The notes beneath the pieces were generated by a model, which worked only from the letters and a program-made list of their open reading frames with translations, did no database searches and was not told the origin of the DNA. From the IMG/VR virus record IMGVR_UViG_3300005828_000059: DNA of 46,034 nucleotides; one strand, given 5' to 3'. Below, one piece after another: positions 1-46,034 of this stretch; within the stretch, counting starts at the first letter, position 1, and every line of letters starts with the position of its first letter. The position numbers were made by a program, and so were the translations under genes. This DNA comes from a virus.

Positions 1-1011
1 GATCGCCACGAAGTGCGGGAAGTGCGGGCGAGCGAGGTGGACGCCTGCTACGGCAGCACCGTACACGCCTACGAAGGCAGCAAGGTGGACGCCTACTACG
101 GCAGCAAGGTGGACGCCTACGAAGGCAGCGAGGTGGACGCCTGCTACGGCAGCACCGTACACGCCTACGACGGCAGCATAGTGCACGCCTACGAAGGCGG
201 CGAGGTGGACGCCTGCTACGGCAGCACCGTACACGCCTACGAAGGCAGCGAGGTGGACGCCCACGGCGGCAGCACAGTGCACGCCCACGAAGGCAGCACA
301 GCGCACGCCTACGAAGGCAGCGAGGTGGACGCCCGCGCCGGTAGCACGGTGCATGCCCACGAAGGCAGCACAGTGCACGCCCACGGCGGCAGCACGGTTC
401 ACGTACACCACGGCAGCAAGGTGGACGCCCGCGCCGGTAGCACGGTGCATGCCTACTACGGCAGCAAGGTGGACGCCCGCGCCGGTAGCACAGCGCACGC
501 CCACGAAGGCAGCACGGTGGCCGCCTACAGCAGCACGGTGCACGCCTGCTCCGGTAGCATGGTGCACGCCCACGAATGCAGCACCGTGCACGCCTACGAA
601 GGCAGCAAGGTGGACGCCTGCTCCGGTAGCATGGTGTACGCCTACGACAGCAGCGAGGTGCACGCCTATGCAGGCAGCAAGGTGTACGCCAACGACGGTG
701 GCATCGTGCACGCACACGAAGGCGGTACGGTGCATGCCTACTACGGCAGCAAGGTGTACGCCAACGGCGGCAGCACCGTGCAAGCCAACGAAGGCGGTAC
801 GGTGCATGCCTACTACGGCAGCAAGGTGTACGCCAACGGCGGCAGCACCGTGCAAGCCAACGACGGTGGCATCGTGCACGCACACGAAGGCGGTACGGTG
901 CATGCCTACTACGGCAGCACGGTGGAAGCCTACGCCGGCAGTACGGTGCATGCCTACGAAGGCAGCACGGTCGTCCGCGCGAATGGCAAGGGTGAATGGA
1001 GGAACGGATGA
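1..1011 (+). CDS. Tandem octapeptide-repeat protein. About 40 units of 8 aa, consensus G-S-(T/K/E)-V-(H/D)-A-(Y/H/C)-(E/Y/D). This is the 3' part of an ORF that starts at 45894 and crosses the circular junction (343 aa in total).
   Basis: A strict 24-nt periodicity runs from about 30 to 980. The frame is continuous with ATG 45894 through the 120-bp terminal overlap. The stop TGA at 1009-1011 overlaps the next ATG. Confidence 0.8.
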   Translation, partial: DRHEVREVRASEVDACYGSTVHAYEGSKVDAYYGSKVDAYEGSEVDACYGSTVHAYDGSIVHAYEGGEVDACYGSTVHAYEGSEVDAHGGSTVHAHEGSTAHAYEGSEVDARAGSTVHAHEGSTVHAHGGSTVHVHHGSKVDARAGSTVHAYYGSKVDARAGSTAHAHEGSTVAAYSSTVHACSGSMVHAHECSTVHAYEGSKVDACSGSMVYAYDSSEVHAYAGSKVYANDGGIVHAHEGGTVHAYYGSKVYANGGSTVQANEGGTVHAYYGSKVYANGGSTVQANDGGIVHAHEGGTVHAYYGSTVEAYAGSTVHAYEGSTVVRANGKGEWRNG

Positions 1012-1190
1012 AACAGGTTGGACGGCATGTATACGTTACCTTCTGTAATGACCTTTGGTCGGTCACTATAGATCTCGGTGAATACTTTGCACCACTTGAT
1101 GGCGGCGCTTGGAAAGAAAAGAAAGATGCAATAGTTGCCGCTCGCGCCGCTGCTACAGAATATAACTGCGGATGGACCATTGACGATTGA
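1008..1190 (+). CDS. Hypothetical early protein (60 aa)
   Basis: ATGA stop/start overlap with the repeat ORF. GGAGG lies at 998-1002. The track ORF 996..1190 is trimmed to this start. Confidence 0.6.
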   Translation: MKQVGRHVYVTFCNDLWSVTIDLGEYFAPLDGGAWKEKKDAIVAARAAATEYNCGWTIDD

Positions 1191-1234
1191 CTGGGAGACA
1201 TCAACAACGTATCTGAGCCGACTACGGAGGAGTT

Positions 1235-1492
1235 ATGAAAACCACCACGAAAATAGTTTGGGATGAAATCTCACAGCGCCGCGAGGCGCACCTCACCCTT
1301 CACATGGGTGATGAGAGCGAGTTTCTCGCTCTCGTGCCCGGTATCGGTGGAGCCCTTCGGCTCATCTGCCAAAGTGGGCAGATGCAGGTAGGCCGCAATG
1401 TCTGGGCCGACGGGATCGAGGTCAAGCGGGGTAGCACATACAGTGTCATTCCAGCCGGCGGCGTTGTGCATTTCGTCACTATCGCCAGCTAA
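1235..1492 (+). CDS. Hypothetical early protein (85 aa)
   Basis: ATG preceded by the SD sequence ACGGAGGAG. The antisense ORF 1271..1471 has no start signal. Confidence 0.65.
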   Translation: MKTTTKIVWDEISQRREAHLTLHMGDESEFLALVPGIGGALRLICQSGQMQVGRNVWADGIEVKRGSTYSVIPAGGVVHFVTIAS

Positions 1493-1518
1493 TAGATCCG
1501 ACTACTAGGAGGGACACC

Positions 1519-1692
1519 ATGAAAGCAACAGTCCACGCACGCACCCTTAGCGATGGCAGCATCGTGTGGGATGTCTATTACACGCCGCTCAATGATCTGC
1601 TGGAAGTAATCCGCTTCGGCTGCCAGTCCGAAGAACATGCGCAGCTGCTGGCCGCAGCGCTCAACGATGTAGCTTTCGTTGATCACATTTAG
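1519..1692 (+). CDS. Hypothetical early protein (57 aa, below the ORF-track cutoff)
   Basis: Hand translation gives MKATVHARTLSDGSIVWDVYYTPLNDLLEVIRFGCQSEEHAQLLAAALNDVAFVDHI. A strong SD (TAGGAGGGA) lies 5 nt upstream. The ORF fills the gap in the plus-strand gene string. Confidence 0.55.
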   Translation: MKATVHARTLSDGSIVWDVYYTPLNDLLEVIRFGCQSEEHAQLLAAALNDVAFVDHI

Positions 1693-1715
1693 GCTACCAC
1701 CACTAGGAGGACAGC

Positions 1716-1955
1716 ATGAGCAAAGGAACACGCAGTCACAGTAGCCCGCTGCTGCGGGCGCACGGGATCTCGCTGTACTGGGATCCGTTCGGTCGCGATC
1801 TGCATGGCAACGCGATCGTGTGGGTCGACTTTGACGGCTTCTTGAATATGTACGTTTCACGCCAGCACGCGTTTTGCGTACTTCGCGGCTGGCTCGCCGC
1901 GAAGCAGTTAGCGAAGCAAAGTCAACGTCAACGTCAACAACGGGGGGCGGTATGA
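1716..1955 (+). CDS. Hypothetical early protein (79 aa) with a basic, Q/R-rich C-terminus
   Basis: SD sequence TAGGAGGA upstream of the ATG. The stop overlaps the next start (ATGA at 1952-1955). Confidence 0.6.
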   Translation: MSKGTRSHSSPLLRAHGISLYWDPFGRDLHGNAIVWVDFDGFLNMYVSRQHAFCVLRGWLAAKQLAKQSQRQRQQRGAV

Positions 1956-2191
1956 TTCACAGATTGAGAAATTGGCTCGAAGAGAACCGCGCGCGCAAGC
2001 TGCGTGTGTTCAAAGACGGTGACGCGAGCATCGTCTGTTACGTCGTCAACGGGCACCAATTCATGCTGCTCGAGTATGAAGAAGACGGTGCCTGGGACAT
2101 CTATATCCCAGCACACCAGGGCAATAGTGTCAGTCTGACGCTCGATGCCCTAACCAAATATTGTGGCATACCCGCTGATGAGCCCCGGTGA
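1952..2191 (+). CDS. Hypothetical early protein (79 aa)
   Basis: ATGA overlap with the upstream ORF. A G-rich stretch precedes the ATG. The track ORF 1874..2191 is trimmed to this start. Confidence 0.55.
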   Translation: MIHRLRNWLEENRARKLRVFKDGDASIVCYVVNGHQFMLLEYEEDGAWDIYIPAHQGNSVSLTLDALTKYCGIPADEPR

Positions 2192-2223
2192 CACGAGGCG
2201 AAACGCCCGAGAGGGCGTCCGGG
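2171..2223 (+). ncRNA. Candidate type I hammerhead self-cleaving ribozyme. Predicted cleavage is after C2219.
   Basis: The elements occur in this order: CCCG, CUGAUGA, stem II (2182-2199), GAA, A-CGCCC-GAGA-GGGCG-U, C, then CGGG. All invariant core nucleotides are present in the correct order. Stem III is a perfect 6 bp with a GNRA loop. Stem I is only 4 GC pairs. Confidence 0.55.
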
Positions 2224-2257
2224 AAGTCCTCCCGAACTAACTAACCTGGAGTAAATC

Positions 2258-3343
2258 ATGATCACACTGATGCAAGCTTCCGCCGAATGGGCGTCCCGTC
2301 CCGCCGACCAGCGCTTCACCTCGTTGCACGATATGCAGGAGATGATGCAGCGCATGCGCGATCGCAGCCGCAACGTGATCGTGTCGAGCCGCGCCATCAC
2401 GGCGCGTCCGGCTCACGGCAACGACATCGATGTCATAGTCGCCGGGGGCGGTGGGGCTTATCAACCCACGCACTGGAGCTTCGGTCAGCTGGCGCAACGC
2501 GCTGGCGCGCCCGCAGGCTACCTGCGCACGCTGCCCGCCGAGATGGCTGCCGATTGCATAAACTACGGCATGCGCTTCTCGCGCAGCGTCGAAGATGTTG
2601 GGATCCTGCTCCACAAGGATGAAGCCCCGGTTCTTCGGGCAGCGACTGGGCCCGGCTATGGACGCATCTGGAATGCGGACATCGTCCGCACTTTAGTCGA
2701 GCATGTCGGCGACGGCGTGAGCGGTGACTGGAAAGTGCCCGGCGAATTCAGGCAAGCCGTCCAGGTGACCAAAGACAACACGACGTTGTATGCGAGCGAT
2801 CGCGATATGTTCGTCTTCCTCGCTGACGAAAAACACCGGATCGAGATCCCCAACCGCCGCAACGGCCAGCCGGGCTCGCTCGCTCGCGGGTTCTTCATCT
2901 GGAACTCGGAAGTTGGCAAGACTACGCTCGGGATCGCAACGTTCCTGTTCGACTACGTCTGCGCCAACCGGATTGTGTGGGGAGCGAAGGAGTACAAGAA
3001 GATCACGATCCGTCACACTGCGGGCGCGCCCGATCGTTGGATCGAGCAAGTCGAGCCGGCGCTGATCGAGTACGCGGCAAGCACGCAATCGACGGTGCTC
3101 GACACAGTCAAGGCGGCCCAGGCGAAGAAGATCGACGATGTCTCCGAGTTCCTAACCAATCGGTTCGGGAAGAAAGTCGCAGCCGCGATCGAAGCGGTCC
3201 ACGTCGAGGAAGAGGGTCGTCCGATCGAGTCTCTCTGGGACGCAACGACCGGAGTCACTGCGTACGCTAAGCAGCTGCCGCACCAGGATGCGCGCGTCGA
3301 GATCGAGCGCGCGGGTGGTGAGATTCTCGAACTTGCGGCTTAA
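2258..3343 (+). CDS. DUF932-family protein (the phage/plasmid-associated family)
   Basis: 361 aa. The central segment GFFIWNSEVGKTTLGIATFLFDYVCANRIVWG matches the remembered DUF932 core pattern (NS..G...l.....f..vC.N). An SD-like CTGGAG lies upstream. Confidence 0.65.
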   Translation: MITLMQASAEWASRPADQRFTSLHDMQEMMQRMRDRSRNVIVSSRAITARPAHGNDIDVIVAGGGGAYQPTHWSFGQLAQRAGAPAGYLRTLPAEMAADCINYGMRFSRSVEDVGILLHKDEAPVLRAATGPGYGRIWNADIVRTLVEHVGDGVSGDWKVPGEFRQAVQVTKDNTTLYASDRDMFVFLADEKHRIEIPNRRNGQPGSLARGFFIWNSEVGKTTLGIATFLFDYVCANRIVWGAKEYKKITIRHTAGAPDRWIEQVEPALIEYAASTQSTVLDTVKAAQAKKIDDVSEFLTNRFGKKVAAAIEAVHVEEEGRPIESLWDATTGVTAYAKQLPHQDARVEIERAGGEILELAA

Positions 3344-3350
3344 CGAGATT

Positions 3351-3378
3351 GCCCGCCTCTTCGGAGGCGGGCTTTTTT
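3351..3378 (+). terminator. Rho-independent terminator after the DUF932 gene
   Basis: GCCCGCCTC-TTCG-GAGGCGGGC forms a 9-bp stem and is followed by TTTTTT. Confidence 0.8.
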
Positions 3379-3388
3379 AGGAGGTAGC

Positions 3389-3676
3389 ATGAAAGACCCT
3401 TTAGAAGTTTTAGCGAGCGCGCTCGTGCCGGGGGATCATATTCGCACCAGCTTGATCGAGCCGTACAACCACGCGATGGTCGTGAAGGTCGACAAAGATA
3501 ACGTGTACCTCGTTCGACCGTACATGACCTGCGCCGACTTCATCTACGGCGATGACCCACAAGTCATCGAGTATACGGGGCACGAGCACTACAGCATCGC
3601 GCGTAGCGTGCGCGTTGTGCTCGTTCGCCCTTCAACCGTCAAGGAACTCAAGGAACTCAAGGACGAGGATCTCTAA
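3389..3676 (+). CDS. Hypothetical protein (95 aa) with C-terminus ...VKELKELKDEDL
   Basis: SD sequence TAGGAGGTAG upstream of the ATG. The last 26 nt of coding sequence recur at 37567-37592. Confidence 0.65.
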   Translation: MKDPLEVLASALVPGDHIRTSLIEPYNHAMVVKVDKDNVYLVRPYMTCADFIYGDDPQVIEYTGHEHYSIARSVRVVLVRPSTVKELKELKDEDL

Positions 3677-3677
3677 A

Positions 3678-3890
3678 ATGGAACAACTGCTTTGGATCGC
3701 CCCGCTTTCTCTTGCATCTTTCTTTAGCTTGCCGCCGCTCGGCGTGCTCGCGATTGCGCTCGGCGTTGCCGGCGCGCAAGTCACCACTCTACCCGCGCCA
3801 CCCCAGCCGGTCGTTGTCGAGAAGCCGGCACCGGCTCCGAGCGGTTATCTGCCGCCGGTTGTCATACTCGAGCGGCGCGGGCGGAGGTAG
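3678..3890 (+). CDS. Small membrane protein (70 aa): two hydrophobic helices followed by a Pro-rich tail
   Basis: The ATG lies 1 nt after the upstream stop. The sequence is MEQLLWIAPLSLASFFSLPPLGVLAIALGVAGAQV... The track ORF 3552..3890 is trimmed to this start. Confidence 0.5.
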   Translation: MEQLLWIAPLSLASFFSLPPLGVLAIALGVAGAQVTTLPAPPQPVVVEKPAPAPSGYLPPVVILERRGRR

Positions 3891-3897
3891 ACCGACT

Positions 3898-4122
3898 ATG
3901 AGGCGAGTGAGGATGCCTGCAGGAAGCAAAGAGCACGAAAGAGCATGCGCGCAAGAGATCGCGCGCATGCAAGCGTGCGAGACAAACCAGACTTGGTGCG
4001 TGTATGAGACGCTCGAGCGCGTGTTCGTGCGCTCGGATCACGTCGAGCCGCCCACGTCCGCAGTGCGCATCGGGATTGCACACCCCGACGGCACGTATCA
4101 ATACGTCAACGAGGAGGTTTAG
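3898..4122 (+). CDS. Hypothetical protein (74 aa)
   Basis: GCGGAGGTAG lies 8 nt upstream of the ATG. This is an internal start of track ORF 3712..4122. Confidence 0.5.
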   Translation: MRRVRMPAGSKEHERACAQEIARMQACETNQTWCVYETLERVFVRSDHVEPPTSAVRIGIAHPDGTYQYVNEEV

Positions 4123-4124
4123 AC

Positions 4125-4337
4125 ATGAGCTTCAAAGTCGAAGTCATCGCGGATAGCAGCGGGAAATGGACCGGCAACGCCATTCGACTGCCGGACAGCA
4201 AGCAAGCTATCGAGTACGGAAACGACCTATTCAGCCGCTGGACCGCCGTCAGCGAGATGCGTGTCGTCGAGTCCGAGGATCCTGTCAACTACCTCTGGCT
4301 CGACGGCAGACTCGTTTCCGTGGAGAGGGTCGAATGA
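4125..4337 (+). CDS. Hypothetical protein (70 aa)
   Basis: SD sequence GAGGAGG upstream. Tightly packed against its neighbours. Confidence 0.6.
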   Translation: MSFKVEVIADSSGKWTGNAIRLPDSKQAIEYGNDLFSRWTAVSEMRVVESEDPVNYLWLDGRLVSVERVE

Positions 4338-4546
4338 CAGCGCGCAAATCTGACTTCCTGGTACGGTATTACCTGTCGATCACCATCTTGACCGCGCAGA
4401 CCGCCGAGGCCCGAAGCTGGGTCGATCAAAACCTGCCCGATGATCGGATATCCTGGGGCAGGCACGGTACGGTCGTCGAACCCCGCTACCTCATTGACAT
4501 CCTCGACGGGATCCACCAAAGCGGGCTGACATGGGAGGAACTATGA
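4334..4546 (+). CDS. Hypothetical protein (70 aa)
   Basis: ATGA overlap with the upstream ORF. This is an internal start of track ORF 4166..4546. Confidence 0.5.
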   Translation: MTARKSDFLVRYYLSITILTAQTAEARSWVDQNLPDDRISWGRHGTVVEPRYLIDILDGIHQSGLTWEEL

Positions 4547-4731
4547 GACAGCATGTTCACGCCCCAGGCTCGCGGCTGCGGAACTGGTATACCGACCAGT
4601 TCTGCATCGTGGGCTACAAGCCCTTGTGCGGGCGTTTGCCGGCTGGCGATACAGTCGGCGATCCCGGTGACAAGGTTACCTGTCCCGCCTGTCAGCAGGC
4701 TCTACAGCAAGCCAGAGAGGAGGTGTTATGA
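4543..4731 (+). CDS. Hypothetical protein (62 aa), possibly a zinc ribbon (C..C...CPAC)
   Basis: ATGA overlap with the upstream ORF. GGGAGG lies upstream. Cysteine pairs occur at CIVGYKPLC and CPAC. Confidence 0.5.
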   Translation: MRQHVHAPGSRLRNWYTDQFCIVGYKPLCGRLPAGDTVGDPGDKVTCPACQQALQQAREEVL

Positions 4732-5075
4732 GGCATAACTACGGGCCCCCTTGCTTCCCTCGCAGGCTGGTCTTCTGCGGCAAGCTGTATGGGGGGTCAA
4801 TGGGCGAACCAGTCTATCCGCTGATGACCCCTTACGAGATCTGGAGGGCCGCATGGCGGGTGTCCCAAGGGCTAGAAAGCGGCCACGAAAGCACAAGAAG
4901 AAACCCTTACTGCAGGGACTGTACTCGAGCGTACCAGGAGGAGCAGTTGCTGGCCGGCAACTGCAATCATCCTGAAGTACGTTTCAAGACCGACAAGGAT
5001 GGCTTTGTCACCGGGTATATCCCACGCCCCCCACGGGACAAGCGTAAGCGCGCAGGGGAGGTAGCGACGGCATGA
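4728..5075 (+). CDS. Hypothetical Cys-containing protein (115 aa) with a basic C-terminus
   Basis: ATGA overlap with the upstream ORF. SD sequence GAGAGGAGG upstream. Confidence 0.6.
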   Translation: MRHNYGPPCFPRRLVFCGKLYGGSMGEPVYPLMTPYEIWRAAWRVSQGLESGHESTRRNPYCRDCTRAYQEEQLLAGNCNHPEVRFKTDKDGFVTGYIPRPPRDKRKRAGEVATA

Positions 5076-5161
5076 ACGACATCTGGTTCTTTCTCTCCGA
5101 CGCGTTCGGAATCCTCGCGCTGCTGATCGTGCTCTACATGATCTGCAACAGGAAAAGCTAA
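5072..5161 (+). CDS. Possible 29-aa single-helix membrane peptide (MNDIWFFLSDAFGILALLIVLYMICNRKS)
   Basis: ATGA overlap with the upstream stop. It is the last ORF before the terminator. It is short, so support is weak. Confidence 0.35.
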   Translation: MNDIWFFLSDAFGILALLIVLYMICNRKS

Positions 5162-5165
5162 CTCG

Positions 5166-5200
5166 AGCCCCGCTCCGGGAAACCGGCGCGGGGCTTTTTT
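5166..5200 (+). terminator. Rho-independent terminator at the convergence point of the two arms
   Basis: AGCCCCGC...GCGGGGCT forms the outer stem, with an inner CCGG-GAAA-CCGG. It is followed by T6 on the plus strand. The hairpin also lies just beyond the 3' end of the minus-strand operon, but there is no U-tract in that direction. Confidence 0.75.
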
Positions 5201-5207
5201 GTGCCCG

Positions 5208-5564
5208 TCAGTTTCGTAAGTTCGTAGGCCGCTCGACGTAGCTGACGGTGTTGGACGGACCACTCTCGCCGTCCGCATCGTACGCCTTGGCGACACAGTT
5301 CACCCGACCGAGTTGAGTCTGCACTGTCGCTGTTCGCTCAGTAGCCGGGACCGTGACAGTCGGCAGTGAAGGCAGAGCAGCGCCCGGTTTCGCGCAATAG
5401 ACCTTGAAGCCGGTAATGCTAACCCCAGTGGGATAGTCCCATTGGAGTGTCTCAGCTGCGCTCGCGTTGCACGCCGGATAGAGCGCCACGAGGATCACCG
5501 CGAAAGTGAGCGCCAGGGGGATCGGGAAACGGCTATTGCTTGTGCTCATATTGCTTGTGTTCAT
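5208..5564 (-). CDS. Secreted protein with an N-terminal signal-like helix and a beta-rich (Fn3/Ig-like) domain (118 aa)
   Basis: SD sequence AAGGAG 8 nt upstream. ATGA overlap with the upstream ORF. The hydrophobic segment FPIPLALTFAVILVALYPACNASA is followed by a Thr/Val-rich domain. Confidence 0.6.
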   Translation of the reverse strand: MNTSNMSTSNSRFPIPLALTFAVILVALYPACNASAAETLQWDYPTGVSITGFKVYCAKPGAALPSLPTVTVPATERTATVQTQLGRVNCVAKAYDADGESGPSNTVSYVERPTNLRN

Positions 5565-5815
5565 ACTTTACGCTCCTTAAAAATCCAGCCGGAAGCCATC
5601 GACAGAATATAGCCGATGACGCCGGTAATGAACACAGAGAGCATCTGCTCCTGTGCCCCACTAAGGTACAACCCGAAATAATCGCAAGCCGCAACAGCCA
5701 GCATCGCGACCTGCGTACCGAGGACTGTCCCGAGGCCCGCACCTGCCGCAGCGTATTGCACTTTGCGGACTGGACGCAGGGTTGGCTGATTATACAACTC
5801 ACCGCGCTTTGCCAT
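5561..5815 (-). CDS. Small two-TM membrane protein (84 aa); holin-like topology
   Basis: SD sequence GAGGAG upstream. Two hydrophobic helices are present (AGAGLGTVLGTQVAMLAVAA and MLSVFITGVIGYILSMASGWIF). Confidence 0.55.
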   Translation of the reverse strand: MAKRGELYNQPTLRPVRKVQYAAAGAGLGTVLGTQVAMLAVAACDYFGLYLSGAQEQMLSVFITGVIGYILSMASGWIFKERKV

Positions 5816-6113
5816 TCAAACACTCCTCGATTTTCGTCAGTCTGATCTCGATGTTGCGCAGCCGTTCCATAACAATATCGAACCGCTCCTCTGCGCGTGG
5901 TGAGGGATTGCCAGAGCGAAACCATTCCTCATGTTTTTGCAACAGCGCATGATCCGATTCAACTCTGGCTTGAAAGGCGGCAAAACCATTCCACCAAGCG
6001 ACGATGCTGATGACGACGCTAAACGCCGTCGTTAGGAACACACCAACTAAAACATGGGTCAGCCGCTTGGATACGGTGTACGACCCATCCCCGTTTTTTG
6101 TGACTGCCGACAT
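5799..6113 (-). CDS. Type II membrane protein with a C-terminal coiled-coil-like region (104 aa); i-spanin-like architecture
   Basis: TGATG overlap with the upstream ORF. There is one TM helix (VLVGVFLTTAFSVVISIVAWW), followed by a helical, charged domain. Confidence 0.5.
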   Translation of the reverse strand: MSAVTKNGDGSYTVSKRLTHVLVGVFLTTAFSVVISIVAWWNGFAAFQARVESDHALLQKHEEWFRSGNPSPRAEERFDIVMERLRNIEIRLTKIEECLNGKAR

Positions 6114-6457
6114 CAGTGCAACTTCTCCCAGAGCGCCAGGGCACCAACAGCGGTGCCGAGCAAAAACGTAATGATAGCCGCGATCAGCGCAAATAACTTT
6201 TTGGTCCAGCTGATCTTCTCGTAGGCCAGCCGCTGAATGTGGACGATACCGGTTTCGGGGTGTTCATCGGTGCCGTACACCGTTCGCTCGATCCTCTCTA
6301 CCTTGGAGAGCACCCTGGTCAACAGTCCCATGATCTCGCCGCCATGCTTCGTCAGCTGGCGACTGATCCATCTCTCTTTTGGGCTAAGCTCGCCCCACCC
6401 TCTCTCCACAGATCGCTTCTCCAACTCATCTGCGCAGTCGCAATCTTTGTCGTCCAT
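6113..6457 (-). CDS. Tail-anchored membrane protein (114 aa) with an acidic, Cys-containing N-terminus
   Basis: The ATG at 6457 lies 1 nt after the stop of the giant ORF. The alternative upstream start at 6487 would overlap that ORF. A C-terminal TM helix is present (LFALIAAIITFLLGTAVGALALW). Confidence 0.5.
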   Translation of the reverse strand: MDDKDCDCADELEKRSVERGWGELSPKERWISRQLTKHGGEIMGLLTRVLSKVERIERTVYGTDEHPETGIVHIQRLAYEKISWTKKLFALIAAIITFLLGTAVGALALWEKLH

Positions 6458-6458
6458 A

Positions 6459-9400
6459 TTACTTTTTCCCGAGCAGCATCCCGCCAATGAAGTCTCGAAT
6501 TGACTCCGGCTCTTCTTCGCCCACAGATAGCTGATACAGGTAATCGCCTGTCGTGATCAACTGTGATGTTGGGAGTCCAACCCACAACCCTGCGGCGCGC
6601 AAAATCTTCTTCGCAAACGCGTCGATGTCTTCGTCCCCTTGCAGCATATCTTTCGTGGATCCGACTGCGCTAGTCGTGGCAGTGTATAGCTGCGCGATCG
6701 GCGAAAACTGGTAGCTGTACCCGCGAGTCCATGCCGAAAAAGCATCTCGCGCAATCGGGATAGACGCTAGCGGATAGAGCGCTACCCCGGAGATAAACCT
6801 CCACCAGTCTTCCGGCTCGGCATCCTCGTCCGGCACATTACCGGTAAGGATCTCCGCCATCAGCGCCGGCACAACCCAGACCCACATCGTCCGCGCAAAC
6901 AGCCTTACAGGGTTCACCCTGCCGACATCGTGCCCGATGCTGCGCAGTTGCCCGTAGAGCGCGCTGAATGGCGTATAAAACAGCGTGAAGATCCGCATCA
7001 AGGCGTTCGAGCGAACCGCCACCATCGCTAAGTCTTTCGCTCCACCTGCGCCTTGCGATTTGCGCACTGCGCGGTCCCCTTCTCGGATCGCTTGCTCTTT
7101 CCCTTTTTTCTCATGGCGCGCCCGCTCGTAAGCGCCAAGCCAAGTCGGCAGACTCACGAGCATTTCAGTTAACCCGATCCCATACATTGACGCAGCCCGG
7201 ATCTGCGACAGTAGATCCTCTTTACCCGACAGCGAACGCAGAACATCGCGCAAGGTTTCGTCGCGAGTCTGGAACCGGTGCCGCATCTCTCCCGACATCG
7301 ACGTCACAAAATCATACGCAGCCGGCGGGTTCGAAATGAACCTGCGATAGCCGGTTACCATCCAGCGAGCGCCGGTTGCCTCGATCGCGGGGCCCAGGCC
7401 AGCAAGCTGAGTGATCATCGTGGATGCTTTGAATCCGAGAGCGGCGATCGTTACGTTGATGCGGGCGCTCTCCAGCATCTGCTGCCAGACAAAAAGCGCG
7501 CGGATGTTGTTCGCGCTGCGATCGTTCGCGATGTTGCGAACCCAGCCTTCCAGCAAGTTCAAATACTCAGACCCCGCTGTATCTGTGATCGCCTGTCGGA
7601 TCTTGCCGCTCCGCAAGACTTTGTTGGCGTCCATGATCACTTTGCGGTGCGTAAGGTCTTTAATGACGCCAGCAACTTCAGACGGCAGCCGGTTGAGCGT
7701 GAGGTCGAAAGCAGCGGTGAACTGCTGCACGCGCGCCTTGGTTCTCCCCTGGGGCGTTGTCGCGCGCACGTAGTTGTTGTCGACCAGTCCGCCAACTGTG
7801 GACGCGAGTTGGAGTCCGCCTCGATCCGAGTACCGGGGGTCATACATCAGTGGATAGTACCCGCCTCGATATGCGCCGAACTTCGTCTCCACTTGGCGCG
7901 CTTTCACCTCTTCCGGCTCAAGCCCGGTTAGCTCCTTCTGCAGTTTCCAGATCGCGGGTTTCATCGTCTCCAGGGTATCCCAAACACCCTGTACAAAATC
8001 CCACTCTTCTTTCGTCAGCAAGCCGAGGGCTTCGTCGATTTGCTCTTTGCTCCAGGTGACGCCCAACGTGTTGGAACGTACGAGTTTGTCGTAGTTGCTT
8101 TCGTTTCCTACGTTAAGCGCGATCCCGAGCAAGTCTCGCCGCACGAGATTGACTCCAGGCGTCAACCGGAGAACGACTTTGTCGAGCGCGCTCTTCTGAA
8201 CCTCGCTCGGGATATTCTGCACCGCACGTGTGATCTTCGCGGTAATCTCTTTCGTCAGATCGTACTCGGCGGTCTGTGCGTCAACTGCCGGGCTCCACAG
8301 AGTATCGTGCCAAGGGCCTGCAGTTCCGCCGTCAACGAACTCGAAGAAAATCTCCGGCTTGAGCATGCTCGCATCAAGCAGCTTTAATATGTGAGTGAGA
8401 CTCTCCCACAAAGACATCCCCTGCTCGGTTGCAGCGCGCAACTTCGCTTTGTTCTTGAACTGCTCGCGCACGCTCGCCGCAAGAGCGTCCTCTGTCTCCA
8501 GCCATTCGCGCTTTGCTGCGCTGGCGAGGAGCTTGTTCTTTACGCGCGCGATGTGCTCGATCTGACGAACGGTGTCGTAGATGCCGTTGATCTCGTCAAC
8601 CGTCAACTGCCGATAGTTGATGCGCGTAGTCTCTTCGACCAGCCTCGCCGGCAGATTGATCTCCTCGCCGAGTGTCTCTCCGCTCGCTTCCTTCTGCTTG
8701 ATCCACTCTCCCAGCGCTTCTCGCTTGTCGAGAGCTTTGTACGGGACACGGATAAACTCGAAGCGCCCCAGCAGCGCTTGGATTTGATCGAGGTAGTCGT
8801 GTCCGGCTTTCCCGAGACGCTCGATAACGGACCGGCGCTGAAACTTCGCCATGTATCGACGGACGTCTTCGACCTGCTCTCGCGCATCGAATGCAGCGTT
8901 GTATAGCTCCATGTTCAGAAGCTCGGTCCTCTTCGCTGCAGCCGCGCTCGCGAAATCTCGCCGCATCAAAGCTTCCATCGATTCGCGGCTCGACTTTCGC
9001 GCCATCCGCAGATAGCTCTGCGGATCCAGGTTGCGCACAGTCTGCTGTCCCACCATGCCCCGCGCCATCGAGCGCAGATCCGCGCGGCCTGGGATCGAGC
9101 GCATCATGCGTCGGCCTTCTGCCACTTGCGCACGCTCTTGGCGTTGCATGACTCGAATTGCCGGTTGCGCCTGCCGCACTAGCCGCTGGAGTGCGTCGAG
9201 TTCCATCTCGACGACGTCTGCACGGGCGTCGGTGTACAAAGAGCGGATAGCCTCTTCGCGTCGAGCCGCGTCGTTTGAGAGCATGTCCCCGAACTCTGCA
9301 TTGAGCCTTTCTTGGACGCGTCTCTTGATCTTGTCGCGCATAGGCTCTGCTTGCGCGATCGATTCGAGCATCTCCTTGCCGGAAGTGAATCCGAATTGCT

Positions 9401-44925: not shown

Positions 44926-45059
44926 ACCGAGCGCTAACAGCGTGGGTCTGCAATGTGCCCCTGTGCAGCAGACATCTGGCTCCGGGTTCGTCCGCAGGCG
45001 CGGAGTGGCCCCACCGGAGGAATAACAGGCCACCAGGGGGCACGCTGTTAGCGCTCGGT
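44926..45059 (+). ncRNA. 134-nt structured element in the rightward early leader, closed by a perfect 19-bp helix
   Basis: ACCGAGCGCTAACAGCGTG (44926-44944) is the exact reverse complement of 45041-45059. Internal hairpins lie at 44946-44973, 44980-45005 and 45005-45033. GTGCCCCT (44955-44962) can also pair with AGGGGCAC (45036-45043). Confidence 0.45.
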
Positions 45060-45090
45060 ATACCAGATCGAAACCATATGGAGGCAGCAG

Positions 45091-45447
45091 ATGGACACGA
45101 ACATCGAGAACTTCAGCGCCCTTATCCTGGACGGAGCGGGGATCGTCGCAGACCAGTTGGGGGAGGTGAAAGCGAGAATGGCAGACTTGGCCAAATCGAA
45201 GAAGGAGCTAGAAGGTCACCTCATCGACTTGCTGCCGAGCGGCTTAGGCGGAAGCGTAGAGGGCGGCATGTTTTGCGCTACTGTCGTGCCGGGTGGCGTG
45301 CGTAAAGCCATCAACTGGGAGTTGGTCGCGATGTTTCTCGCGGCCGAGCTTGGGATTGACGAGGGGCAGCTGAACGCTGCCGCAGGTGATTTCATGCAAG
45401 AGACTCGGGTATCGCCGAGCGTGCGCGTCTCGGCGCGCAAGAGTTAA
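45091..45447 (+). CDS. Hypothetical early protein (118 aa) with an N-terminal coiled coil
   Basis: SD sequence GGAGG 6 nt upstream. The transcription unit is bounded by the promoter at 44869 and the terminator at 45472. Confidence 0.65.
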   Translation: MDTNIENFSALILDGAGIVADQLGEVKARMADLAKSKKELEGHLIDLLPSGLGGSVEGGMFCATVVPGGVRKAINWELVAMFLAAELGIDEGQLNAAAGDFMQETRVSPSVRVSARKS

Positions 45448-45471
45448 GCTAAGATCGTTTCCTCCCCCTTT

Positions 45472-45497
45472 GCCCCGCTCATGCGGGGCTTTTTTTT
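45472..45497 (+). terminator. Rho-independent terminator
   Basis: GCCCCGC-TCAT-GCGGGGC followed by T8. Confidence 0.8.
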
Positions 45498-45540
45498 GCC
45501 AACAAAATCTGAGTGTTATGCATTTCTTTATCAACACCTG

Positions 45541-45569
45541 TTGACAAGCTACGTGAACCCGAGGAGAAT
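45541..45569 (+). promoter_or_regulatory. Sigma70-like promoter for the repeat-protein/early operon
   Basis: TTGACA (45541-45546) is followed by a 17-nt spacer and GAGAAT (45564-45569). It shares the upstream context C(C)CTGTTGACA with the 44862-44874 promoter. Confidence 0.5.
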
Positions 45570-45575
45570 GGATCC

Positions 45576-45893
45576 TGTAGCACGTAACACCGCGAAGGGC
45601 CAGCGGGATAGAAAAAGGGCACCGGGGTCAACCTGATCTAGAGCCGAAAGGCTGAGGGGCAGCCCCAGACCGCTAGGACTTAGCCGATCTGTCGAAAGGC
45701 TAACGAGTGCGAACCGACCGAGCCGGGCAGCGCCATCGATGCTGCGCAAGCACCCGGCTCGCAGAGATAGGTGCCCTCGATCGAGGACGTCGATTTCTGC
45801 GACAACAACGGGGGTAGCATGATGCAAAACATTCTTAACCTGACGCAACACACGTTCGAACGTCCGTTTGGCTTGAATCTTGAGGAGGATGGT
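45576..45893 (+). ncRNA. Roughly 320-nt structured 5' leader or candidate cis-regulatory RNA upstream of the octapeptide-repeat gene
   Basis: No convincing ORF is present. Several helices can be drawn:
- 45616-45623 pairs with 45770-45777.
- AGCC-GAAA-GGCT lies at 45642-45653.
- TAGCC...GGCTA pairs 45681-45685 with 45698-45702.
- The 9-bp helix CGAGCCGGG/CCCGGCTCG pairs 45719-45727 with 45753-45761.
- A palindrome lies at 45775-45786.
The motif CGAAAGGCT occurs twice. Confidence 0.4.
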
Positions 45894-46034
45894 ATGCCTG
45901 TATCAAGGAATGGCGATCGCCACGAAGTGCGGGAAGTGCGGGCGAGCGAGGTGGACGCCTGCTACGGCAGCACCGTACACGCCTACGAAGGCAGCAAGGT
46001 GGACGCCTACTACGGCAGCAAGGTGGACGCCTAC
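45894..46034 (+). CDS. 5' part of the octapeptide-repeat protein ORF. It continues at base 1, and 45915-46034 duplicates 1-120.
   Basis: The ATG at 45894 has GAGGAGGA 4 nt upstream. In-frame alternative starts exist at ATG 45819/45822 and GTG 45771, with an in-frame stop at 45768-45770. Confidence 0.7.
   Translation, partial: MPVSRNGDRHEVREVRASEVDACYGSTVHAYEGSKVDAYYGSKVDAY
45915..46034. repeat. 120-bp terminal overlap identical to 1-120 (circular closure or direct terminal repeat)
   Basis: A base-by-base comparison of the two ends shows they are identical. Confidence 0.95.

Follow-up and report, generated by a model that had tools for sequence, protein, structure and literature searches.

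Does the early-gene block of a podovirus-like phage carry a self-cleaving RNA, and could that RNA release one early gene as a message of its own? We addressed this question in IMG/VR virus record IMGVR_UViG_3300005828_000059, an entire metagenomic contig analysed at its full length of 46,034 nucleotides (nt; the window, along which all positions are numbered). A first-pass annotation had proposed a complete hammerhead ribozyme at 2171-2223, between an early open reading frame (ORF 1952-2191) and a gene for a DUF932-like protein. We conclude, with a probability of about 0.78, that this element is a genuine type I hammerhead, and that its predicted cut would release a separate DUF932 message within the early block.

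A complete hammerhead core at 2171-2223

Read as RNA on the plus strand, the 53 nt of the element supply a complete hammerhead core together with three helices and GUC as the cleavage triplet (Table 1). The invariant core (C3-A9, G12-A14, A15.1-U16.1 and H17) is present in the correct order, and the succession of stem I 5' strand, CUGAUGA, stem II hairpin, GAA, stem III hairpin, C and stem I 3' strand is that of the type I topology. Stem I has four G-C/C-G pairs; stem II has five pairs, a single C2185.A2196 mismatch and a GUGACA loop; and stem III has six perfect pairs capped by a GAGA tetraloop of the GNRA type. The core-adjacent pairs G2174-C2220, G2182-C2199 and A2203-U2218 are all standard. 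Base for base, the core, stems, type I order and GUC site of the first-pass annotation were correct. G10.1-C11.1, C15.2-G16.2 and GUC are the commonest choices at the semi-conserved hammerhead positions.

Folded in isolation, the 53-mer has a minimum free energy (MFE) fold identical to the hammerhead secondary structure, at -21.9 kcal/mol, with pair probabilities of 0.83-0.91 along the stem I 5' strand. The rules by which Perreault et al. (2011; PMC3088659) accepted hammerheads ask for a core and core-adjacent pairs that are intact and for the absence of multiple mispairs, and all three hold for 2171-2223. We ruled out stem III as a transcription terminator: no T-run follows the stem, and the sole plus-strand terminator lies at 3351-3372.

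The match is far from what chance would supply. A descriptor consisting of the core and stems of at least 4 bp, with one mismatch permitted in stem II, finds a single site on both strands of the window, 2171-2223; its 2000 dinucleotide-preserving shuffles, which add up to some 184 Mb, yielded no match. The bare linear pattern without stems was not significant, with 4 matches in the window against 5.75 expected.

We next compared the element with hammerheads from other phages. Scanning viral contigs for CTGATGAG..CGAAAC..GTC returned at least 120 loci, and a full type I hammerhead was present in 73 of the 120 matches listed, often several to a contig. From 75 distinct phage type I hammerheads of unrelated viral contigs we made a clean alignment (A5), in which G10.1-C11.1 and C15.2-G16.2 are invariant, and from it a covariance model (R2). 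Run over both strands of the whole window with filters off, R2 matched 2171-2223 along its full length at 45.6 bits (E ~4e-13), with the second-best site at 11.6 bits; 576 kb of other loci gave no match at E<=0.1. Because the R2 seeds were picked by the descriptor that 2171-2223 also meets, and high pairing in A5 is partly due to that selection, this score speaks for typicality within a real, abundant population and is not fully independent proof.

A model built from 2171-2223 alone (R1) was too specific, giving weak matches (E>=0.4) to loci L128, L124 and L058 and no new homologues. Two R1 matches, L097 1589-1626 (C-GAUGAG) and L131 965-1019 (CUAAUGAG), have broken cores and were rejected as hammerheads, and an exact-match DNA search of viral contigs for the element found none. 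Type I hammerheads in other contigs can be clustered (six copies in L352, five in L325, four each in L311 and L241, three in L290/L355); clustered copies share stem I within a contig (TTAA/TTAA, CTAA/TTAG) and are spaced by a few hundred bases.

The one feature named as a weak point in the first-pass annotation, a stem I of only 4 bp, did not prove to be one. Where phage type I hammerheads have a long stem II (L289, L358, L347, L273, L274, L267, L268 and L338), stem I measures only 4-5 bp, and after it come 1-3 purines and a stretch of 3-6 nt that complements loop II. A short stem I with an A-rich spacer is routine in this subclass, and since the window element shares the layout we regard it as normal for its kind. 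The likeness extends further in L289, L358, L347, L273, L274 and L267, where a GC-rich stem I of 4-5 bp and a GUC site accompany a stem II of 5-7 bp with a loop of 5-9 nt, and a short GC-rich stem III with a tetraloop; the stem III of L293 (ACGCCC-UGA-GGGCGU) is almost identical to that of the window.

A tertiary contact between stem I and loop II is needed for fast hammerhead cleavage at physiological Mg2+. The window has a candidate for such a contact in GUC 2226-2228, which follows an AA spacer after stem I, where related hammerheads have pseudoknots of 3-6 bp, and is complementary to GAC in loop II. At 3 bp this pseudoknot is a possibility too short to tell from chance, unlike the 4-6 bp pseudoknots of the six loci just named (loop UGGNN with NNCCA). 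Perreault et al. (2011; PMC3088659) described tertiary contacts of this kind, in which loop II forms a pseudoknot with the 3' flank.

Ribozymes beside DUF932 genes in distant relatives

Self-cleaving RNAs of two unrelated classes stand beside DUF932 genes in other genomes (Table 1). They include type I hammerheads upstream of the gene, type II hammerheads on either side of it and Twister-P5 ribozymes downstream of it. The L186 element, with its extra core nucleotide, could be either an active variant or a decayed copy. L220 2634-2709 and L058 1592-1658 fitted loose descriptors with weak stems and were counted as doubtful. The four type I candidates upstream of DUF932 genes were misaligned by MAFFT. 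A full-consensus hammerhead is found in 9 of 363 DUF932 flanks (about 200 nt each, from 212 distinct loci), against 0.13 expected, and at most 2, in 300 shuffles of those flanks. No DUF932-like gene is present in any of the 120 hammerhead-pattern viral loci listed, and DUF932 is therefore one among many partner genes. Many different partner genes were likewise noted for prophage hammerhead clusters (Perreault et al., 2011; PMC3088659).

Table 1. Positions of the ribozyme and its surroundings in the window, and of ribozymes near DUF932 genes at other loci (L numbers)
DNA	Feature	Position	Strand	Score, basis or placement
Window	Upstream ORF, 79 amino acids	1952-2191	+	Final 7 codons plus stop overlap the ribozyme's 5' half
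Window	Stem I, 5' strand, CCCG	2171-2174	+	Pairs with 2220-2223
Window	Core C3 U4 G5 A6 U7 G8 A9, CUGAUGA	2175-2181	+	In-frame codons of ORF 1952-2191
Window	Stem II hairpin, GCCCCG-GUGACA-CGAGGC, closed by G10.1-C11.1 (G2182-C2199)	2182-2199	+	Reading, folding
Window	Core G12 A13 A14, GAA	2200-2202	+	Reading, R2 model
Window	Stem III hairpin, ACGCCC-GAGA-GGGCGU, closed by A15.1-U16.1 (A2203-U2218)	2203-2218	+	Reading, folding
Window	C17; predicted scission between C2219 and C2220 (GUC)	2219	+	Consensus position
Window	Stem I, 3' strand, CGGG	2220-2223	+	Reading
Window	Alternative hairpin, CGGGA-AGUCC-UCCCG	2220-2234	+	Folding, relatives; mutually exclusive with stem I
Window	GUC, candidate 3-bp pseudoknot with GAC 2190-2192 of loop II	2226-2228	+	Complementarity
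Window	Ribosome-binding site, GGAG	2248-2251	+	Reading; 6 nt 5' of ATG
Window	DUF932-like gene, 361 amino acids	2258-3343	+	phrog_1362, E=3.6e-55; PF06067, 21.1 bits; names of relatives
Window	Intrinsic terminator: 9-bp GC-rich stem, TTCG loop, T6	3351-3378 (stem-loop 3351-3372)	+	Terminator scan
L124	Type I hammerhead	2371-2433		~70 nt 5' of DUF932 ATG
L128/L129	Type I hammerhead	1420-1473		30.3 bits with R2; ~55 nt 5' of ATG
L186	Type I with one extra core nucleotide (CUGAAUGAG)	1383-1436		23.8 bits with R2; 65 nt 5' of ATG
L171	Type II hammerheads	584-639, 1329-1388, 2663-2732		Full consensus, long stems; 113 nt before and 11 nt after DUF932 gene
L008	Type II hammerhead			Rfam 45 bits, above gathering; immediately past DUF932 stop
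L174	Type II hammerhead	2664-2718		Immediately past DUF932 stop
L212	Type II hammerhead	2588-2669		Immediately past DUF932 stop
L177	Type II hammerhead	454-508		Full consensus, long stems
L012/L173	Twister-P5	1973-2033		39.7 bits, above gathering; directly 3' of DUF932 gene
L190	Twister-P5	2594-2651		43.4 bits, above gathering; directly 3' of DUF932 gene
L124	Twister-P5	4039-4098		36.3 bits, slightly under gathering; 380 nt 3' of DUF932 gene

Two other structured elements were seen near DUF932 genes. Distant relatives at 25-34% identity, mostly from Planctomycetota (L023, L031, L033, L038, L042, L044, L063, L067 and L133-L151), have a hairpin about 45-70 nt 5' of the DUF932 ATG, with covarying stems, a near-invariant CCGGUGGUGCA loop and then a T-rich run; an example is GAGAGA-CCGGTGGTGCA-TCTCTC-GTTTTT, and the L023 copy lies at about 2915-2945. 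This hairpin matches no Rfam family and could be an unreported RNA or a single-stranded DNA element. On the viral contig L199, a permuted transfer-messenger RNA (RF04321, 84.5 bits) occupies 527-777, about 0.7 kb 5' of a DUF932-like gene.

The predicted cut, the leader hairpin and rival explanations

The ribozyme lies on the sense strand within a run of small plus-strand ORFs across 1-6400, in a phage whose markers include a head-tail connector (PF12236), a GP7 capsid protein, a family A DNA polymerase and a primase-helicase. A sense-strand position between two genes of a phage early block is a typical hammerhead setting. ORF 1952-2191 overlaps the preceding ORF by ATGA at its start, and has no homologues outside this phage and no PHROG family. 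The PF06067 score of the DUF932-like protein falls slightly below the cut-off of 23, its relatives are annotated DUF932, and a search of solved structures with it gave nothing informative. The terminator starts 8 nt past the DUF932 stop and is the sole plus-strand terminator-like site in 1-6500, an interval in which no plus-strand sigma-70-like promoter was found. With no such promoter, and no plus-strand terminator in 1-3350, it is plausible that the DUF932 gene is transcribed together with the upstream ORFs on one polycistronic early transcript.

Elsewhere in the window, a 24-nt tandem repeat (about 39 copies, 71% matches) fills 36-971 and resumes at the right end of the contig (45945-46034); it encodes an 8-residue repeat protein, GS[TK]V[HD]AY[EY], in ORF 13-1011. 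Because L161 joins 45004-46034 to 1-93, the window is circularly permuted or terminally redundant.

We propose that the early transcript would read through ORF 1952-2191 into the DUF932-like gene, that the 4-bp stem I would form along with stems II and III, and that the RNA would then cut itself between C2219 and C2220, perhaps assisted by the short pseudoknot between loop II and the 3' flank. The upstream fragment would have the GC-rich hairpin of stem III at its 3' terminus and carry a 2',3'-cyclic phosphate there, and the downstream fragment would begin at C2220 with a 5'-OH and refold into the hairpin at 2220-2234. Refolding would take away the 3' strand of stem I and make the cut irreversible, leaving a leader with a 5'-terminal stem-loop ahead of the ATG at 2258; the 38 nt that the first-pass annotation had counted for this leader are right. 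Between them, cut and terminator would delimit a discrete monocistronic DUF932 message about 1.16 kb long, whose stability and translation would be uncoupled from those of the upstream genes. Stem-loops at the 5' end and non-monophosphorylated 5' ends shield bacterial mRNAs from RNase E-type 5'-end-dependent decay. Because both would protect the cleaved message, stabilisation of DUF932 mRNA is a reasonable expectation, though dependent on the host; this effect, like cleavage itself, we infer from the arrangement of the locus.

The hairpin in this scheme, CGGGA (2220-2224) with UCCCG (2230-2234), had been pointed out as possible in the first-pass annotation, and relatives have a conserved counterpart in the 5' untranslated region. 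In many relatives of at least 50% identity a small hairpin ends 14-40 nt 5' of the ATG, immediately 5' of the ribosome-binding site. Its stem varies (GCCGC/GCGGC, GCGCG/CGCGC, GCAGG/CCUGC, GGGAGC/GCUCCC, UCGGGGG/CCCCCGA) at a constant position, and its loop is often CUAGAAA or CUAGUAA. A perfect hairpin of at least 5 bp occupies this position in 19 of 35 distinct leaders, against 6 +/- 2.3 in shuffles. Since the window hairpin sits at the conserved leader position, we read the ribozyme as borrowing its 5' arm for the 3' strand of stem I. In L162 (2960-3060), the nearest of the distinct relatives at 71% identity, no gene stands between the DUF932-like one and a divergent intergenic region with TTGACA-like hexamers, and the hairpin GCCGC-CUAGAAA-GCGGC ends 14 nt 5' of the ATG, an arrangement that fits a hairpin normally near the 5' end of the message.

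Several observations, besides the selection of the R2 seeds, weigh against an active ribozyme at this locus, and some of them would suit a chance or decayed hammerhead-like sequence without catalysis, its two GC-rich hairpins being mere intergenic structure. Rfam at gathering thresholds gave no match in the whole window. In a permissive search of 2100-2300 against 4227 families the top two were hammerhead models, each spanning the full core, with RAGATH-1-hammerhead (RF03152) at 23.1 bits against a gathering score of 56.3 and the type I model Hammerhead_1 (RF00163) at 17.6 bits against 34; the RF00163 E value of 0.094 (402 bases x 4227 families) becomes about 0.005 when rescaled to one family and the whole window. 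The covariance-model search called for by the first-pass annotation is therefore favourable in rank and unfavourable in score. These scores have to be read beside the failure of the same thresholds to report the full-consensus type II hammerheads of L171 (all three), L174, L177 and L212, from which we judge Rfam gathering insensitive for phage examples. Membership of RAGATH-1 itself we ruled out at 23.1 bits, as that family's 5' hairpin aligned with zero loop residues.

Conservation gives a similarly divided answer. The contigs reached by searching with the upstream ORF and for the identical DUF932 protein are all 99.7-100% identical copies from other samples, with no substitution within the element, so that it has no measurable covariation. 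The closest distinct relatives are at 65-71% protein identity (in L163-L168 the gene follows a spacer of 90-125 nt), and no hammerhead was found upstream of the DUF932 gene in relatives at 53-71%; it is the distant ones that have analogous hammerheads, built with different stems, beside DUF932. The site moreover came from a scan of many windows, in which rare chance matches can be selected. A chance or decayed sequence is nonetheless improbable to us, given its absence from the shuffles, an R2 score unrivalled elsewhere in the window, the common choice at every semi-conserved position, and independent hammerheads and twisters at the same gene in other phages.

The competition between stem I and the leader hairpin is a real caveat for activity, and cleavage may be partial or conditional as a consequence. 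In folding calculations the pair probability of stem I is about 0.8 for a transcript ending at 2229 and drops to 0.001 or less once 2230-2234 are transcribed; by nearest-neighbour energy the hairpin conformer (-26.5 kcal/mol) lies 3.5 kcal/mol below the hammerhead fold (-23.0 kcal/mol), and in the predicted 3' cleavage product the hairpin forms precisely at the 5' terminus. The pseudoknot partner 2226-2228 sits within the loop of that hairpin. Upstream, GAUGCCC (about 2144-2151) is complementary to GGGCGUC (about 2213-2219), the 3' arm of stem III plus C17, and in transcripts from 2140 this long-range helix replaces stem III in the MFE fold; it could be a misfolding trap or a coincidence. Translation adds a further obstacle: the UGA stop of ORF 1952-2191 does lie inside loop II (2189-2191), as the first-pass annotation said, and ribosomes terminating there would unfold the 5' half of the ribozyme. 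The upstream ORFs of L124 and L128 also end within their ribozymes. From these points one could argue for a ribozyme that is active only conditionally, most transcripts being kept uncleavable by the hairpin and by translation into loop II; on this view cutting would be minor or under regulation, adjusting or even reducing DUF932 expression instead of constitutively releasing a stable message. We regard this as possible but rather unlikely. The energy models take no account of tertiary contacts in hammerheads or of the order of folding during transcription, neither a ligand nor a protein partner is known, and MFE folding also misses the hammerhead fold of L124, L128 and most of the type II neighbours, and so does not discriminate.

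A role outside mRNA processing, whether as part of a DUF932 cassette that is mobile or selfish or in ligating or circularising the RNA between flanking ribozymes, would account for the sporadic distribution across DUF932 lineages and for the interchangeable class and topology, which suggest that ribozymes were gained and lost repeatedly; selfish elements commonly contain self-cleaving ribozymes (Perreault et al., 2011; PMC3088659). The window, however, has one ribozyme, with a terminator and not a second ribozyme on the other side of the gene, and no repeats or integrase near the DUF932-like gene. Perreault et al. (2011; PMC3088659) sought spliced or circular products and found none, and we consider such a role very improbable here.

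A genuine type I hammerhead that frees the DUF932 message is the reading we retain. A broader proposal, which we put forward tentatively and think doubtful, is that phage DUF932-like genes are a preferred site for at least two self-cleaving classes, which free the gene as a separate message. On this proposal the window element would be a cleave-then-refold switch, or would be gated by the hairpin, a factor or the ribosome, because the 3' strand of stem I and the pseudoknot partner both lie within the conserved hairpin.

Relation to known hammerheads and significance

Hammerheads in some phage and prophage genomes are known, as the first-pass annotation said; their place beside phage genes was described in 2011 (Perreault et al., 2011; PMC3088659), and viral contigs abound in type I examples. 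Prophage hammerheads flank genes and cleave polycistronic RNA in vitro (PMC3088659). The cases of that study, such as the triple around ardA in Agrobacterium tumefaciens, have a canonical core, as in the window, and like the window element they lie on the sense strand between genes of a polycistronic phage unit, where they were proposed to cut the transcript into gene-length mRNAs. Their clusters are resembled by those of DUF932-related genomes (three ribozymes in L171, two in L128). The window differs in having a single ribozyme with an intrinsic terminator in place of a second one, a DUF932-like gene downstream, and a cut that is predicted.

The HF1/HF2 haloviruses offer a parallel in early-gene leaders: a hammerhead variant lies 13 nt 5' of an early helicase gene, and the mapped 5' end of the message is within 3 nt of the cleavage site (PMC3088659). 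As there, the cut in the window is predicted to define the 5' end of the message. The HF1/HF2 element, however, has a variant core, an archaeal host and a different gene, whereas the window combines a canonical core with a 38-nt leader and a 5' hairpin. RAGATH-1 (RF03152) aligns with the window element through the core and stems I-III but has an extra 5' hairpin that the window lacks.

According to a passage of PMC6765202 that draws on Roth 2014 and Weinberg 2015, twisters and hammerheads occur in the same gene neighbourhoods for reasons that are unexplained; the two unrelated classes in equivalent positions beside DUF932-like genes resemble the neighbourhoods described in that passage. Among the papers searched we found none naming both 'hammerhead' and 'DUF932', the gene lists of Roth 2014 and Weinberg 2015 being outside this comparison, and the main text of a 2017 RNA-motif paper mentions neither RAGATH nor DUF932. 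The window element adds one example to a large known class of phage hammerheads. Three points are useful leads, not a new category: that different ribozymes recur beside DUF932, that stem I overlaps the leader hairpin, and that the Rfam thresholds have a blind spot. The last of these carries a practical warning, that Rfam gathering thresholds overlook many canonical phage hammerheads.

What hammerheads do for bacteria and phages is, according to PMC6765202, still an open question. This locus is a tidy test case, with one canonical ribozyme, one competing leader hairpin and one terminator around a single gene. Should DUF932 genes indeed be a preferred site for ribozymes, there would be a testable reason for one unexplained gene association of twisters and hammerheads, and the DUF932 case could show whether such ribozymes make stable monocistronic messages.

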